Both the position numbers and the translations under genes were made by a program. A model generated the notes under the pieces. It was not told the DNA's origin, ran no database searches, and saw nothing but the letters and a program-made list of their open reading frames with translations. From Octopus vulgaris (Eukaryota), in assembly GCA_951406725.2 (NCBI GenBank), contig OX597833.1:50840001-50904000 (forward strand): a stretch of 64,000 nucleotides of DNA, given 5' to 3'. Within the stretch, counting starts at the first letter, position 1. Each line of letters begins with the position of its first letter. Shown here one piece after another: positions 1 through 59,916 of the stretch.

Positions 1-193
1 AAGTACCAGGCAAGTACTGGAGATCGATTTAATCCTCTTATCCTCTCTTCTCAAAAGCTGTTGACCTTCAATCCTGCAACAGACGGGCGTCTCGTTCAGT
101 GTTCAACTTCTACTTACTTCATCGACCCCCGGAAGCATAAAAGGCGATGTCAACATCGGCAGAATTTTAACATAAAATGTGAGAAGAGATACC

Positions 194-427
194 TATTTCT
201 TTACTACCCACAAGGGGCTAAACATAGAGAGGACAAACAAGGACAGACAAACGGATTAAGTCGATTATATCGATCCCAGTGCGTAACTGGTACGTATTTA
301 ATCGACCCCGAAAGGATGAAAGGCAAAGTCGACCTTGGCGGAATTTGAACTCAGAACGTAACGGCAGACGAAATACCACGATGCATTTCGCTCGGCGTGC
401 TAACGTTTCTGCCAGCTCGTCGCCTTT
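194..427 (-). mobile_element. SINE family A, young full-length copy nested in an older family A copy (111-193 and 447-490)
   Basis: Minus strand reads GGCGACGAGCTGGCAGAAACG (A-box-like) ... GAGTTCAAATTCC (B box) ... TTTCATCCTTTCGGGGTCGAT ... AAAGAAATA. Flanked by a 19-bp direct repeat AAATGTGAGAAGAGATACC at 175-193 and 428-446. Confidence 0.9.
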
Positions 428-552
428 AAATGTGAGAAGAGATACCGCTAAGAATATTGCCCGACACGATAACGAATCTCCCGCTCTGATGACCTCGTAC
501 CTAATTCAGAAACCGAAAAGCAAGAAAAATAATAACAATAAGTATAGTAACA

Positions 553-6325: not shown

Positions 6326-6712
6326 TACTCTTTTACTCTTTTACTTGTTCCAGTCATTTGACTGCGACCATGCAGGAGCACCGCCTTTAGTCGACCAAAT
6401 CGACCCCAGGACTTATTTTTGTAACCCTAGTACTTATTCTATCGGTCTGTTTGGCCGAGCTGCTAAGTTACAGGGACGCAAACAAGCGATGTTATGGGGA
6501 GTGGGGGCAAACACCACAAACACACACACACACACACATACACACACACACGACGGGCTTCTTTCAGTTTCCGCCTGCCAAATCCACTCACAAGGCTTTC
6601 GTCGGCCCGATGCTATAGTAGAAGACACTTGCCCAAGGTGTCACGCAGTGGGACTGAACCCGAAACCATGTGGTTGGTAAGCAAGCTACTTACCATTCAG
6701 CCACTCCTGCGC
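6326..6712 (-). mobile_element. SINE family B (tRNA head, CORE-like segment, internal microsatellite)
   Basis: Head GCGCAGGAGTGGCTG..GGTAAG, B box GGGTTCAGTCCC, CORE-like CACCTTGGGCAAGTG, internal (CA)n, tail AAACAAGTAAAAGAGTAAAAGAG (all on the minus strand). Confidence 0.9.
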
Positions 6713-7926: not shown

Positions 7927-9789
<1,863 letters not shown>

Positions 9790-12252: not shown

Positions 12253-12545
12253 GCGGAGGCGCAATGGCCCAGTGGTTAGGGCAGCGGAGTCGCGGTCGGA
12301 GGATAGCGCTTTCGATTCCCAGAGCGAAAATACCTAAAACTCCACGAGGCTCCGGCAGGGTGTGGTGGCGACTTCTATTGTACTCTTTCGCCCCAACTTT
12401 CTCTCACTCTCTCTTCCTGTTTCTCGGGGAACGCTGCGATGGACTGACATCCTGTCCACCTGGGGGGAACACATACGCCACAGAAACCGGGAAACCGGTC
12501 CCATGAGCCTGGCTAGGCTTCAAAAGGGCGCATCAAAAAGTAACT
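12253..12545 (+). mobile_element. SINE family C (tRNA-derived head), tail type 1
   Basis: GGAGGCGCAATGGCCCAGTGGTTAGGGCAGCGG..TTCGATTCCC head; 11-bp TSD TAATCTTGTCT at 12242-12252 and 12546-12556. Confidence 0.9.
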
Positions 12546-15949: not shown

Positions 15950-16367
15950 ATTTCTTATTTCTTTATTGCCCACAAGCGACTAAACACAGAGGGAACAAAC
16001 AAGGACAGACAAAGGGATTAAGTCTACTACAGTGACCCCAGTGCGTAACTGGTACTTAATTTATCGACCCCGAAAGGATGAAAGGCAAAGTCGACCTCGG
16101 AGGAATTTGAACTCAGAACATAACAGCAGACGAAATACCTGTTTCTTTACTACCCACAAGGGGCTAAAAACAGAGAGGACAAACAAGGACAGACAAACGG
16201 ATTCAGTTGATTATATCAACTCAAGTATGTAACTGGTTCTCGATTTATCGATTCCGAAAGGATGAAAGGTAAAATCAACCTCGGAGGAATTTGAACGCAG
16301 AACGTAACGGCAGACAAAATACCGCTAAACATTTCGCGCGGCGTGCTAACGATACTGCCAGCTCACC
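15950..16367 (-). mobile_element. SINE family A dimer (two units, one head)
   Basis: Units end at GAAATACC (16139) and AAATACC (16323); head GCTAAACATTTCGC..GCCAGCTCACCG occurs once. Confidence 0.9.
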
Positions 16368-16683
16368 GAATTATTTCTAGCAATCTGCTCGAAATAACAG
16401 ATGGCTGTTATTTCTAGAAGATTGAGTGGCCTCTTAGACGCCTCTTCATTGGCTCAAGTACCGCATAATATATCATTTTCCTGATTATACCAATCTGCTT
16501 CTAATCTATAACTCATATATGAATGTATATGATTTATAGTTTAGGAGAATTAATAAATACTTGAAACCTCTCACACGGTGGATTAATGCCAACAATATAC
16601 TCCTAAATTCAGACAAAAGAGATTATATATAACTTTAACTCATATAAAAATCAAATCTTATAAAAGAAAATTGGTTTCACAAA

Positions 16684-28438: not shown

Positions 28439-28599
28439 CATGTATATATTCTTTTACTTGTTTCAGTCTTTTGACTACAAAGCCACGCCTACGCCTTTGC
28501 ATATATACATATGTACGTACATGCATGCATGCGTGCGTGTGTACTTACATACATACATGCATATCATATCATATAGAATTGAATTGAATAATAATTCTT

Positions 28600-29567
28600 T
28601 CTACCATAGGTACAAGGCCTGAAATTTGGGGGAGAGCTTAGTCGATTACATCGACCCCAGTAACCAACTGGTTCCTAATTTATAGACCCGAAAAACATGG
28701 ATGTAAGGTAAAGTTGATCTCAGCAGAATTGGAACTCCCAACGTTAAGGCGGAACATATACCTATTTCTTATTTCTTTATGGCCCACAAGGTGCTAAACA
28801 CAGAGGAGACAAACAAGGACAGACAAACGGATTAAGTCGATTAGATCGACCCCAGTGCATAACTGGTACTTAATTTATCGACCCCGAAAGGATGAAAGGC
28901 ACAGTCGACCCCGGCGAAATTTGAACTCACAACGTAACGGTAGACGAAATACCTATTCTTTACTACCCACAAGGGCTAAACACAGAGAGGACAAACAAGG
29001 ACAGACAAACGGATTAAGTCGATTAGATCGACCCCAGTGCATAACTGGTACTTAATTTATCGACCCCGAAAGGATGAAAGGCACAGTCGACCCCGGCGAA
29101 ATTTGAACTCACAACGTAACGGTAGACGAAATACCTATTTCTTTACTACCCACAAGGGGCTAAACACAGAGAGGACAAACAAGGGCAGACAAACGGATTA
29201 AGTCGATTATATCGACCCCAGTGCGTAACTGGTACTTATTTAATCGACCCCGAAAGGATGAAAGGCAAAGTCGACCTCGGCGGAATTTGAACTCACAACG
29301 TAACGACAGACGAAATACGGCAGACGAAATACCTATTTCTTTATTACCCACAAGGGGCTAAACACAGAGAGGACAAACAAGGACAGACATAGGTATTAAG
29401 TCGATTACATCGACTCCAGTGCGTAACTGCTACTTAATTTATCCACCCCGAAAGGATGAAAGGCAAAGTCGACCTCGGCGGAATTTGAACTCACAACGTA
29501 ACGGCAGACGAAATACCGCTAAGCTTTTCGTCCGGCGTCCTAACGTTTCTGCCAGCTTGCCTCCTTT
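28600..29567 (-). mobile_element. SINE family A array: one old copy (28600-28762), four young units, one head
   Basis: Junctions ATACC|TATT at 28762, 28953, 29135 and 29333; head begins after 29517. Confidence 0.92.
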
Positions 29568-30879: not shown

Positions 30880-31490
<611 letters not shown>

Positions 31491-32299
31491 GTATCTTTTT
31501 GCACTTTACTCATTTTGGAGATACGAAGATTTTGTCCTACATGTTTGTTTGTACGTTACATATCTTTCTGTGTGCCCCAATGGTTATACATATCATCATC
31601 ATCATCATCATCTTTCCTCAGTAGTTCCATGCGAGTTTCTACTGCATCGACTGTTGCACCTCCGTTTCCCTGGGGTGCACGCAGCATAGTGTTTATATAT
31701 GCATGTGGATCGAAGGAGCACAGACCTTTCTTAGTGGTGTGCTACTTCAGTTTTTCTTTATTTTCATCATCATGGGGTAGAGTTTCTTATTTCTTGTTTT
31801 ATTAGTGTTTATTCTACTGCGCTTGGCTTGTGTAATAATGTCGGTCATGTTATTTTAGTGGGCGTTAATCTTGTATAGTATATGTACCGCGAGTTGTGTT
31901 GCTTTAGATTATTAGATGCTTATTGTATTGGGTGTGTGGGATGTGTGAAGATTGCTTTAATTCAGCTACTCAAGTGAATTGATAATATCTTGCACTAGGT
32001 GTAAGCAGTTATTAGCAGAGTTATTTATGGAGAGTCTGTAGAGTTTTGAGCCCATGTGTTTCTTTTCATATGTTTTAACCATGCTCTAAATACTAATGGT
32101 ATTGTTTTCACCGTCATGCCTCACATCTTGTATTATTATTATTGTTTCCATTTTACTTCCGAGGAATCTCGATTTTACCTGCTCCTGTTAATTCTGTAAA
32201 GGCGGACAGCAACCTGTTTGTCAAAGGTCTCAGGGTTTCTGTCCACGATATTTAACACCCAAGTATCAATCGCAAAATCTTTTTTAGTATTTTTTTTTT

Positions 32300-32678
32300 A
32301 TTATTACTATTATTTTCATATACACTCAAGAAATTAGACTCTTGGAAAAGAAAATATAGTAACATCAGGCTAAAACAAGCAACCTTAGATTCCAAGAACC
32401 CTCTTAAGTATCCTAGCTGTTCCAAATAGCACTGTTTTCTGGAGCTGCACTAAACTGGGTTTTATGCCAATTTCCTCAATCCATCTCTTCAGTTCTTTAG
32501 GGTTTGTTCCCAATGCACTTATAACTACTGGGATACATTTTACCCGCACTTTCCCATAGTCTCTGAAATTCAGTAGTTAGGTCCGGGTACTTAACAATTT
32601 TTTCTTTACATCTTATATTAATGTTTTCATCATTTGGGATTGTAAAGTCAATTATCTGACTCTTTCTATTCACGTTGT

Positions 32679-32680
<2 letters not shown>
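32300..32680 (-). pseudogene. R4/Dong-clade non-LTR retrotransposon 3' fragment (restriction-like endonuclease C-terminus)
   Basis: Minus strand gives IIDFTIPNDENINIRCKEKIVKYPDL (DxxxP..EK..KY.DL) and LVQLQKTVLFGTARILKRVLGI* (stop 32385-32387), then a short UTR and a TAA-rich tail. Confidence 0.8.
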
Positions 32681-32748
<68 letters not shown>

Positions 32749-33992: not shown

Positions 33993-34869
33993 TACATCAC
34001 GCATACACACACATAAACGTACACAAACATATATATATATAAGCATACAAATATATATGTGCATATATGTATGTACGTACTTATGCATGTATACGAAACT
34101 GATTTTTCTGAGGAATTACGGAGAATCTTTAGGCTATATCCATCAAGAAGCAATGGGCCTAAATAATATATCACATTTTTTGTAATTCTCGCTCCTTTCC
34201 ATTCCGCCATCGGTGTTAACATCAATGATACGAATATAATAGCAGAATTAGTGGTTAATGAGCGTCAATGAATTTTGTCAGCAATGGTGTGTTCAGATTT
34301 ATGAGAAGCAATGTTAGCTAAAGTGAGAAATTTCTTCGTCTAATTCTTGATATTTTTGACGTGGTATCTCTTCCGAGCAAGTTATATTTTTGGCGTACTG
34401 CCCAGACTTTCTAGTATGTGTCTAGGCTATTTAAATGCCAAAATCTTTGCCAAAATTGGTCGTATACGTTTAATGACGCTGCATGATATTGGAGAAGTAT
34501 GCGGCCTTTATGCCTGGTCATTACACATCATTCTTTTATAAATTTTCCATTTTCTGTTTTTCTTTACCAAATGACTTTCAGCAGTCACATGCATGCATCC
34601 CCCAATATGCCGATATATATATACATACATTCAGTTCGAAGTTACATTTCCCCACTTTTACTCGCCGTTAATATATCAATCTGTTCTCTACTGATTTAAT
34701 AAAATCCGATTAGAGATTTTGTTGTAGATGGATGGAAGTAAATTCACTGCGGGTAATTACATTAGATTAAATACATCACTAGCTATTTCAGCATTTAGAA
34801 TTTTCATCAAAAATTAATTACATCGCAAATTAATACATCCTTAATAAAGACATTCATCATTCTAAATAC

Positions 34870-35470
34870 TTATTTCTTTATTACCCACAAGGGGCTAAAG
34901 ATAGAGGGTACAAACAAGGACAGACATAGGATTTAAGTCGATTACATAGACCCCAGTGCGTAACTGGTACTTAATTTATCCACCCCGAAAGGATGAAAGG
35001 CAAAGTCGACCTCGGCGGAATTTGAACTCACAACGTAACGGCAGACGAAATACCTGTTTCTTTATTACCCACAAGGGGCTAAACATACAGGGGACAAACA
35101 AGGACAGACATAGGTATTAAGTCGATTACATCGACCCCAGTGCGTAACTGGTACTTAATTTATCGACCCCGAAAGGATGAAAGGCAAAGTCGACCTCGGC
35201 GGAATTTGAACTCACAATGAAACGGCAGACGAAATACCTGCTTCTTTATTACCCACAAGGGGCTAAACATAGAGGGGACAAACAAGGACAGACATAGGTA
35301 TCAAGTCGGTTACATTGACCCCAGTGCGTAACTGGTACTTAATTTATCGACCCCGAAAGGATGAAAGGCAAAGTCGACCTCGGCGAAATTTGAACTCTCA
35401 ACGTAACGGCAGACGAAATACCGCTAGGCATTTCGCCCGGAGTGCTAGCGATTCTGCCAGCTCGCCGCCT
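34870..35470 (-). mobile_element. SINE family A trimer (3 x 184 bp, one head) with a 17-bp TSD
   Basis: Units end at 35054, 35238 and 35422; TSD TTCATCATTCTAAATAC at 34853-34869 and 35471-35487. Confidence 0.95.
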
Positions 35471-36350
35471 TTCATCATTCTAAATACATCGTGGGAAAAT
35501 TCAGCGTTATACCTTTTATCTGAAGAGTAATAACACCTCACTAAACTTTATTTTATATATACTATAAATTTTTTAGTTGCGAAAACAATACGTAATATTT
35601 CATTAACAATGAAAGAGATATGTCAATTTTATAATTCTATATTCACGAAATTTTTAGGGAAGTTGTTGAAGAAACAATAAAAAGAAATGAAGTAATAGTG
35701 GAACCGTGTATCGCGTATGTAGATAGTTCTACGCAGCAAATAAAAGAAAAATATGAAGATAACGCTGCAAAAAATTCAACGCAGTGTCAATGAATATAAA
35801 AAGTACGAAATAACGGAATATTTAAGAGGTATTGTCTAAGATGTGTCTTTATAAGCGTAATTCTTTTTTTTTTTTCTACCTTAAAATAATGTTATTTTCT
35901 TGCTGGAATTTTTTTCTTTTGTGATTCATAGTTTAAAAGAAATTTTAATGCTTTTTTTTTTCATAGAATAATTTTGATGTTAATTTTGTGATTTAATTTT
36001 GAATTCATTTTTATTGTTAAATAAACGCGACATGTTTTCTGTAGGAACAAAAATCTTAAATAATGCTTAATGATGTATTTACTCTGCATTTAATAATATA
36101 CCAGAACAACACAAAACAGCATTCATTGAGACGTTTCGCTTACGGTGTAATTAACATATGATGATTCTCGTGTAGGTTAAGAAGTTTGCTTGCAAGCATA
36201 TGTTTTCAAGTGTCTTCTACTATAATCCCAAGCCGACCAATGCCATCAGAGAATTTGGTAGATAGAAACTGTGTGGAAGCACGTCGAATATATATATATA
36301 TATATATATGAATATAAATGAATATATATATATATATGTATATATATATG

Positions 36351-43851: not shown

Positions 43852-44279
43852 TAATAATAATAATAATAATAATAATAATCTTTTCTACTCTAGGCACAAG
43901 AATCCACCCTCCTCCTGCTACTCCTCCTCATCCTCCTCCTCATCACCATCATCACTACCATCATCAATATTTTCAGCTACAGCAGTACTATTAGTAGTTC
44001 CTCAACAGCTTTATGCGTGTCTTTATTGCCACAGCCAGGTGCCCCATCATCTTCTTGAGGTGCATGAATAATTAAAGCTCTAGAATCGAGTATTGATTAA
44101 ATAAGCGTTTGTTTTCGGCTATGTGACAAATTAGCTGAGTTGTTAGAGTGCTTCTGAGAATGCCTCCCAGTAACTGTTCCGGCTGTGCGTGCTCTGAGTT
44201 CAAATTCAACCGCTACCAAATTTCTCTTTCATTATATCATGGGTCGAAGGTACCGAGCTGACAGAAACGTTAGCAGGTT

Positions 44280-44630
44280 AAGGCGGTGAGCTGGCAGAAT
44301 CGTTAGTACGCCGGGCGAAATGCTTAACGGTATTTCGTCTGCCGTTACGTTGTGAGTTCAAATTCCGCCGAGATCGACTTTGCCTTTCATCCTTTCTGGG
44401 TCGATTAAATAAGAACCAGTTACGCACTGGGGTCGATACAATCGATTTAATCCGTTTGTCTGTCCTTGTTTGTCCTCTCTGTAGTTAGCCCCTTGTGGGT
44501 AGTAAAGAAATAAGTATTTTGTCTGCCGCTGCGTTCTGAGTTCAAATTCCGCCGAGGTCGACTTTGCCTTTCATCCTTTCGGGGTCGATAAATTAAGTAC
44601 CGGTTACGCACTTGGGTCGATATAATCGAT
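44280..44630 (+). mobile_element. SINE family A dimer
   Basis: Head AGGCGGTGAGCTGGCAG, junction AAAGAAATA|AGTATTTTGTCTGCCG (~44511), then a second headless unit. Confidence 0.9.
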
Positions 44631-44677
44631 TGGATAAGTTCCATGCTGCGTTTATACAGCGTAGGAGTGAATGTGTA

Positions 44678-49195: not shown

Positions 49196-49748
49196 TTGGG
49201 TTGTCCGGAAAGTTCGTGCCGAATTTTAAAGGAAAGAAAAAGGTCAATAAATGTTTGCCATTACATTTTTAATCAACCAAATATGAACCATTTTGTTGCA
49301 CAATGCGTCTCCATCTTTCCTTTAACTTGAAAATACCCTCTTCCCAGAATAGAGGTGGTTTCATGGCAAAGAATTCATCAAGGTATCTTTTTATGTCATC
49401 CAAGGAATTGAAAGTTTTACCATTAAGACTATTCTGCAGAGACCTGAATAAGTGGAAATCCGAAGGAGTACTATCAGGTGAATATGGAGGGTGGGGTAAC
49501 ACATCCCAGCCGAGCTGCAGCAATTTTTGTCTGCTTCCCAAACCAACAAGTGCCGAAAATAAACTTTCTTATCGTCCATTTTAAAGGGTTACAGAATTAA
49601 CACAGGTTATAGGAACATAAAACTTGTTCCCCGAAAAGATAGCTAAATGGACGTGTAGTCAAATCCTATTTTGTGGACTCAACCATGTTCTAAAATATGT
49701 CGAAAGGTAAGCTGCTATAAATCGGCACGAACATTTCGGACAACCCAC
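49196..49748 (-). mobile_element. Internally deleted mariner element with both TIRs
   Basis: TIRs TTGGGTTGTCCGGAAAGTTCGTGCCGA / TCGGCACGAACATTTCGGACAACCCAC with TA flanks. N-terminus MDDKKVYFRHLL lies next to the C-terminus WDVLPHPPYSPDSTPSDFHLFRSLQN..RWRRIVQQNGSY (49269-49541). Confidence 0.92.
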
Positions 49749-53460: not shown

Positions 53461-53489
<29 letters not shown>

Positions 53490-53491
<2 letters not shown>

Positions 53492-53699
53492 TCTTTTACT
53501 CTTTTACTTGTTTCAGTCATTTGACTGCAGCCATGCTGGAGTACCGCCTTTAGTCGAGCAAATCGACCCCAGAACAAATTCTTTGTAAGCCTAGTACTTA
53601 TTCTATCGGTCTCTGTTGCCGAACCGCCGATTTACGGTGACATAAACACACCAGCATCGGTTGTCAAGCGATGTCCGGGGGACAAACACAGACACACTA

Positions 53700-53738
<39 letters not shown>

Positions 53739-53892
53739 CGACTGGCTTCTTTTCAGTTTCCGTCAACCAAATCCACTCACAAGGCTTTGGTCAACCCGAG
53801 TCTGTAGTAGAAGACATTCGACCAAGTTGCCACGCAGTGGAACTAAACCTTGAACCATGTGGTTGGTAAGCAAACTACTTACCACACAGCCA
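53490..53892 (-). mobile_element. SINE family B, near full length
   Basis: Tail CTCTTTTACTTGTTTCAGTC, internal (CA)/(TA), head CTTACCACACAGCC. Confidence 0.9.
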
Positions 53893-58992: not shown

Positions 58993-59218
58993 CCTTTACT
59001 CTTTACTCTTTTACTTGTTTCAGTCATTTGACTGCGGCCATGCTGGAGCACCACATTTTGTCGAGCAAATCGACCCCGGGACTTATTCTTTGTAAACCCA
59101 GTACTTATTCTATCGTCGGTCTCTTTTGCCGAATCGCTAAGTGACGAGGACATAAACACACCAGCATCTGTTGTCAAGCAATGCTAAAGGGACAAACACA
59201 GACACACAAACATACACA

Positions 59219-59304
<86 letters not shown>

Positions 59305-59472
59305 TATATGACGGGCTTCTTTCAGTTTCCGTCAACCAAATCCACTCACAAGGCTTTGGTCGGCCCGAGGCTATAGCAGAAGACACTTGCCCAAGATGTC
59401 ACGCAGTGGGACTGAACCCGGAACCATGTGGTTGGTTAGCAAGCTACTTACCACACAGCCACTCCTGCGCCT
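58993..59472 (-). mobile_element. SINE family B, full length
   Basis: Complete head (..GCCACTCCTGCGCCT), internal (CA)n(TA)n, tail (TTTACTC)n. Confidence 0.92.
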
Positions 59473-59916
59473 TAACGTTCTTTTTATTTTTCTTCTTCTC
59501 CATAACTCTTTCTTCCGCACGTTGATGACATACACAATACACGTTAATGGCCAACTTCCTGTCGCTGCTAAGCACCCGCATTCCTATACAAGATGTTAAC
59601 ATTCTTCCATGAACATTCTTCATTAATTGAAAAGTGACAATAACTACCCTTACCAAGAAAAGAAAATTTTGCATGTTCTTTCGCCGAGCATGACAACAAC
59701 GAAACTCACTCAAAACTTCCTCTCTTCTGTCCTAGTGACCTCATCTGTATAAAATTGCTTAGCCCTGTCAGGCTGTATTCCTACAACAGCGAGATTAAGC
59801 TAAACGCCATCTCTGCTGGATTCCCGGTGAAGCAGTAATGAACAACAAACGTAGCATAAGAAGACGCAACCGATTCTGTACATTAGCTTTCTTGCAATCG
59901 TCACTCTTGAGCTGTA

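Follow-up and report, generated by a model that had tools for sequence, protein, structure and literature searches.

The tandem SINE array at 28.6–29.6 kb of a 64-kb stretch of Octopus vulgaris DNA (the whole stretch analysed, hereafter the window) is best explained by serial self-targeted insertion combined with one out-of-register duplication, a reading that we consider likely. The copies in the window display a fixed internal insertion base, TSDs of 17–19 bp, mixed subtypes, and one duplication at the DNA level. This evidence is drawn from five loci of one 64-kb window, designated A0 to A4, which carry a common young tail and together contain 11 young 3′ ends. The array at 28.6–29.6 kb, A2, lies on the minus strand and belongs to a tRNA-head SINE: a single head is followed by four headless young units of 184 bp and then by an old body whose tail differs. 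From the head onward, its features are as follows:

29518–29567, minus strand: the single SINE head, with an A-box-like TGGCAGAAACGT at 29543–29554 and the 5′ arm of the head hairpin
29334–29517, minus strand: young unit u1 (unit 4 of the original prediction), of the ATACCTATG subtype, with a B-box-like GAGTTCAAATTCC, the young tail and 1 private difference
29319–29333, minus strand: TSD-like doublet, an extra 14–15 bp copy of the unit start
29136–29318, minus strand: young unit u2 (unit 3), of the GATTAAAT/GTAGT subtype, with 2 private differences
28954–29135, minus strand: unit u3 (unit 2), a chimera, with columns 1–146 of u4 type and the tail end of u2 type
28770–28953, minus strand: unit u4 (unit 1), with 8 private differences, the most diverged young unit of A2
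28763–28769, minus strand: AGAAATA, an extra 3′ terminal repeat of u4
about 28590–28762, minus strand: old host copy, consisting of the body from the insertion base onward and an older tail ending in ATT repeats

The ATACC|TATT joins that had been proposed to link one diverged and four young units are found on the plus strand at 28762/28763, 28953/28954, 29135/29136, and 29333/29334. TRF reports the array at 28770–29517 with a 184-bp consensus, 4.0 copies, and a score of 1167, and it is more than a chance arrangement, since the only three TRF arrays with a period of at least 100 in the 64 kb all belong to the same young-tail SINE family. The body of the old host is identical to u2 at 92/120 aligned positions. 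Its tail resembles a copy at 545–625 (0/300 shuffles as good) and does not match the young tail (64/300 shuffles as good); with a host that carries a different tail, the young units are not derivable from it by duplication. We regard the array as selfish-DNA debris and found no sign of a host function.

The element is approximately 233 bp long, and searches of the window with it gave 19 hits by BLAST and 31 by nhmmer (E up to 1). Its head with A and B box-like motifs and its short, non-coding, dispersed copies are those of a SINE2 element, and its TSDs likewise vary in length as in SINE2 (19 bp in A0, 17 bp in A3, and a candidate of 9 bp in A1). By inspection against the box consensus, we take 29543–29554 to be the A-box and 29480–29492 to be the B-box; ARAGORN detects no intact tRNA in the SINE head. 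All headless units begin at the same base, roughly nt 51, which is the first base past the loop (the border of loop and 3′ arm) of a 13-bp head hairpin situated between the two boxes. Folding of the element as a whole is unexceptional (z −0.96). The sense strand of the young units in A0, A2, and A3 has no run of four T, so that Pol III could read through and give transcripts with sequence complementary to the target. The repeats of the window are suggestive of an octopus genome, and we presume that the element resembles the abundant octopus tRNA-SINEs OK, OR1, and OR2 of Ohshima and Okada 1994. Consensus sequences of OK/OR1/OR2, CORE, Deu, and Meta are absent from the texts and supplements searched, and the parts covered of four papers (PMC4758252, PMC4824008, PMC5786205, PMC3747384) gave no basis for assigning a family. 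Five sequence motifs of the element had no match in a full-text literature search, nor did its motifs in the supplementary files covered of the octopus repeat literature, including PMC9115989, and scanning GTDB for stray occurrences of the SINE body gave 0 loci.

The remaining young-tail loci of the window are the following:

97–496, minus strand: A0, an old copy split at the nt-51 base by a full-length young copy (194–427)
15956–16371, minus strand: A1, a head and two young units with 33/184 positions different, and a candidate 9-bp TSD AGAAATAAT
34853–35487, minus strand: A3, a head and three young units of a single subtype, with a 17-bp TSD on either side
44245–44639, plus strand: A4, a head fragment, a full-length young copy (44280–44512), and a tailless body from the nt-51 base

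Locus A0 is the direct and strongest evidence of insertion at the nt-51 base of an older copy. Its TSD is an exact 19-bp repeat (428–446 and 175–193) that starts at the insertion base and occurs only twice in the window, and its host and insert are identical at 76/103 positions (26% diverged). The 17-bp TSD of A3, also exact and also present only twice in the window, begins with GTATT and lies in non-SINE DNA, and the 3′ flank of this locus starts with AGTATTT. The founding site of A1 is not RGTAT. No TSD was found for A2 or A4, and A2 is without an old-type left TSD. Headed copies directly after about column 70–77 of another copy's body were also observed (31342 and 44245–44249, plus strand), possibly at a second preferred site or by chance.

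Across the five loci of the window, 9/11 young 3′ ends adjoin the nt-51 base of another copy and 10/11 lie directly before RGTAT, the non-SINE target of A3 included; one of the nine abutting ends, that of u3, is the product of duplication and so is not independent. The natural 3′ end of the element is the unit end at 9/9 SINE-to-SINE junctions. In the SINEU-type criterion more than 20% of copies lie beside one target type (PMC4494074), and the corresponding figure here is 9/11 of 3′ ends, in one window. Founding insertions fell on the nt-51 site in 2/4 cases with the selected locus left out (3/5 overall), for which p is about 4e-7 if insertion is uniform, 0.003 with every RGTAT a possible target, and 0.02 with every GGTAT one, with the number of possible RGTAT and GGTAT sites counted by hand. 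Among 11 candidate hosts, those with RGTAT were hit in 3/5 cases and those without in 0/6, a difference that is not significant (p=0.06). As a control, a second tRNA-like SINE family had 0/5 copies in arrays, likewise not significant (p=0.17); its copies, of about 326 bp, lie at 12255, 37797, 41193, 47995, and 59917 (plus strand), none of them tandem. An 8-nt insert, GGTTTACC, is present exactly at the preferred base of an older copy, the fourth to keep the motif (31266–31273, plus strand), and is possibly a cut-and-repair scar.

Array-mates are not always closest kin, contrary to the pattern that the original prediction had associated with simple tandem duplication. The closest units to u1 are A3u2 and A3u3 (9 differences each, versus 13–17 within its own array), and the closest to u2 is A0u1 (194–377; 8 differences), followed by A4u1 (10 differences). 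Approximately unbiased (AU) tests were carried out on 10/12 aligned rows, excluding the chimera u3 as well as A4u2, which has no tail, and rejected a single clade for u1, u2, and u4 (p=0.0026) and for u1 and u2 (p=0.0185); monophyly was not rejected for A1 (p=0.17) or A3 (p=0.37). Accordingly, A2 is no simple duplication, whereas A3 could be. The unit tree is otherwise poorly resolved, with 0/7 inner branches starred. The different subtypes ascribed to u2 and u1 were borne out, as was the sharing of variants by u4 and u3, which have six in common (columns 13, 37, 43, 52, 95, and 110) and also carry AAACGGATTAAG; five of the six are absent from the other units among the 12 aligned, and the variant at column 37 also occurs in A3u1. 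No subtype order is common to two arrays.

Judged from their sequence differences, u4 was probably the first unit of A2 to insert, followed by u2 and u1 on the head side, although the age gradient in private differences (8 in u4 versus 2 in u2) is not significant (p=0.10). Array A1 shows the reverse order, in which the unit beside the head is the more diverged (16 versus 8 private differences); in this unit, A1u1 (16140–16323, minus strand), private changes cluster around columns 71–120, a pattern that may reflect mosaicism with an older subfamily. The head of A2 differs from the majority of five young heads at 6/50 positions, one of them a shared variant. Taken at 5/50, its divergence exceeds that of u2 (p=0.006), is close to that of u4 (p=0.35), and maybe falls short of that of the old body (p=0.055); given its likeness to u4, this head may be u4's own, replacing most of the host's. 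More speculatively, AAAGC just upstream of the A2 head could be a remnant of the host head.

The local duplication included in the original prediction is real, but it is out of register, with its breakpoint at 28990–29000 within a tail and not at a unit junction. Unit u3 differs from u4 at 0/146 of the first columns and at 7/38 of the last, a run reproduced by 12/200,000 random placements, and equals u2 over columns 136–184 save for two 1-nt homopolymer deletions. With u4-like columns 1–146 and a u2-like end, u3 is a u4/u2 chimera with the crossover within 28990–29000, a sequence pattern that bears the signature of unequal exchange by one unit, or of slippage, involving u2 and u4; other possible sources are gene conversion and an artefact of assembly. 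The short duplication reported at one junction is also present, with CAGACGAAATAC at 29307–29318 and again at 29321–29332. This doublet shares its starting base with the TSDs at 175/428 (A0) and 34853/35471 (A3) and is similar in length, and the earlier reading of it as a left ("residual") TSD is plausible, though at column 13 it carries G and u4 carries A, which speaks against that reading. It could also be a 3′ read-through extension on the RNA of u1, or an empty cut-and-fill scar.

The chimeric u3, an out-of-register duplication in its own right, lends weight to the alternative that the arrays grew by recurrent DNA-level duplication, in which slippage or unequal recombination between the GTATTT of the unit start and of the 3′ flank would generate a head followed by n units, and ectopic gene conversion would mix the subtypes. 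The uniform subtype and AGTATTT flank of A3 fit this account, and unequal recombination is suggested for SINE arrays of squamates (PMC10702118) and clams (PMC11481361) in the parts of those papers covered. Such duplication cannot, however, yield A0, with its full-length copy, 19-bp TSD, and 26%-diverged host, nor can it put young-tail units before an old-tail host, and several whole-unit conversions would be required in A2. We therefore regard it as an unlikely general explanation, and for A2 pure tandem duplication is rejected on the strength of the old-tail host and the AU tests.

The mixed arrays might instead have been inherited from a few master loci, with dimers or trimers read through and retrotransposed whole. 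The missing T4 run on the sense strand of young units in A2, A3, and A0, through which Pol III could read, would permit such multimeric sources, and the uniform trimer of A3 inside one TSD and the CA|GG junctions in A1 and A3 are in keeping with them. Against this, the arrays share no subtype order, insertion at a fixed base is still needed for A0 and for the join of u4 to the old host, and serial insertion is shifted to the source locus, not removed; we hold multimeric sources to be quite improbable.

Targeting by position has precedents in Ty3 and in the Dictyostelium TRE elements. Applied here, a LINE complex anchored on SINE copies through Pol III factors or an R-loop would nick beside the head hairpin with no recognition of sequence, which would suit both the position of the site at the loop/3′-arm border of the 13-bp hairpin between the boxes and an enrichment greater than a 5-nt motif accounts for. 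The boxes of the A0 host are decayed, however, the non-SINE target of A3 has the same GTATT, and the motif-less hosts were hit in 0/6 cases, making this a very improbable account. The fixed head-to-tail junction and 184-bp monomer, and the LTR-like ending of A4 at the body end, could recall a ribozyme-bearing or rolling-circle retrozyme, a Penelope-like element, or a TRIM tandem array, but any of these is scarcely credible given no ribozyme family among 9 Rfam matches (E up to 5), no CTGANGA hammerhead core on either strand, and, with regard to TRIM/Cassandra elements, no TG...CA ends and TSDs of 17–19 bp in place of 4–6 bp.

Serial self-targeted insertion, as the original prediction had it, is thus the reading supported by the A0 insertion with its 19-bp TSD, the 9/11 ends at one base, the 10/11 ends before RGTAT, and the AU rejection for A2. 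A young, new-tailed, tRNA-head SINE subfamily would be mobilised by a partner LINE via target-primed reverse transcription, and this LINE would have a loose (R)GTAT preference, with one such site near nt 51 within the head of the SINE itself. If the host differs little from the insert, the cDNA would anneal to the 15–19-nt staggered end or to the host head to give a seamless headless unit, and as the staggered end is equivalent to the first 15–19 nt of a unit, this annealing would conceal the TSD. In a diverged host, annealing would fail and leave a full-length copy with a visible TSD, as in A0. For A2, an old copy would have taken at least three units, and a later u2–u4 unequal exchange or slippage would have given u3. 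The homology-resolved 5′ ends proposed earlier are plausible; the same 5′ appearance would be expected from deletion between two heads or from target-site deletion as at 44245–44280.

The proposed route from SINE to satellite is borne out in part: one satellite-type step has occurred, but the arrays hold only 2–4 young units. SINE-derived satellites are delimited by at least four homogenised middle monomers, and the arrays here have no more than three, which belong to mixed subtypes, such that A2 is no satellite yet. Self-insertion chains with later DNA duplication nevertheless suggest a path from scattered to tandem repeats. We tentatively raise a broader possibility, itself rather doubtful, of a self-reinforcing retrotransposon that has its own head as target, whose read-through array RNA sharpens priming, whose staggered cut merges with the unit start, for which every copy is a landing pad, and whose mixed arrays pass on to unequal exchange.

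Self-insertion of a non-LTR element is known from Zepp of Chlorella, and homology-guided 5′ joining from R2, both of which are autonomous LINEs and not SINEs. Target-specific tandem formation by a SINE has been described in crocodilians, where, in the parts of the source covered, sequential insertion of SINEU-3/Tx1-Mar at one site produces tandem copies with an expected TSD of 16 bp, and co-transcription with the target can reinforce target-specific integration (PMC4494074). SINEU-3 inserts into Mariner-N4_AMi, shows a visible TSD between copies, and has a U2-derived head and a poly(A) tail (PMC4494074), whereas the octopus element targets its own head and leaves mostly seamless junctions. In the parts covered of a study of squamates, SINE satellites resemble A2 in having mostly 4–5 monomers and an extended terminal unit, unlike it in that those loci reach hundreds of units; the 179-nt unit of sSat3Ati2 from whiptail lizards combines the head's 3′ part with the body and a LINE-derived region (PMC10702118). 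The squamate arrays are ascribed mainly to unequal recombination, with one sentence on same-locus insertion; their starts are called non-random with no mechanism given in the parts covered, and neither "TSD" nor "target site" is used anywhere in the main text as covered (PMC10702118). Arrays of the form TSD1-(SINE)n-TSD1 in the blood clam Scapharca broughtonii, for which unequal recombination is favoured, resemble A3 as a molluscan tRNA-SINE with one complete head and head-truncated repeats within one TSD, but their internal units are, in the parts covered, also tail-truncated, as internal duplication gives, while here all units reach the full 3′ end (PMC11481361). Rodent Dip/B2 multimers are likewise frequent and head-to-tail, with up to eight units, but consist of full-length units, and the options named in the parts covered are tail insertion or dimeric templates, not head insertion (PMC8466645).

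The architecture and the target-specific formation of tandem copies are thus known already, and targeting of the element's own head is what would be new. No SINE inserting in its own head was found in the literature searched, though subscription papers, Repbase, Dfam, or supplements may hold one, and octopus repeat papers describe no such arrays in the parts covered (PMC13282606, PMC9115989). SINEs make up 11.6% of the O. vulgaris genome, according to the part of the source covered (PMC13282606). If the presumed identity holds, arrays of this kind bias how copies are counted, how ages are estimated, and how the consensus is built for a possibly very abundant SINE. Self-targeting also provides a testable mechanism for the fixed start positions of SINE-derived tandem repeats, and may amount to a safe-haven strategy that upsets the promoter spacing of older, competing copies. 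If general, the headed "SINE satellites" of whiptails, snakes, and clams could stem from targeted retrotransposition and not from chance duplication.

No partner LINE or endonuclease was found in the 64-kb window; Dong/R4 and Tx1, the candidate partners, each include families with recent activity in O. vulgaris (PMC13282606). A 3′ LINE fragment at 32300–32683 (minus strand) has what we take to be a frameshifted C-terminus like that of restriction-like-endonuclease R4/Dong elements, with a TAA-rich end. Its match to the SINE tail is not significant (21/300 shuffles as good); 32388–32682 within it gave one spurious Pfam hit and no match in protein searches, and the fragment may be followed, at about 31950–32260, by another LINE-like stretch in a more decayed state. 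Tail-only matches in the window amount to just weak 18-nt and 11-nt hits. CCTTGT occurs near the 3′ end of both the young tail (29145–29157) and the A2 old tail (28607–28619; coordinates approximate, minus strand) and lies in a stem-loop in the young tail, though the overall similarity of the two tails is not significant. An RTE insertion VCF of O. bimaculoides contains no GTATT, AATAC, GGTAT, or ATACC (PMC9115989), which argues only weakly against an RTE partner; the TSD of the one row inspected is 1 nt long.

Other repeats were noted elsewhere in the window. An open frame at 49269–49568 (minus strand) resembles a mariner transposase C-terminus, though there was no Pfam hit for it. The segments 8035–8336 and 9284–9585 form a related, apparently inverted pair about 1 kb apart and are possibly the ends of a DNA transposon. 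At 6326–6712, 53489–53892, and 58995–59480, the abundant repeats D and B occur jointly around a microsatellite, in the manner of a single composite element.
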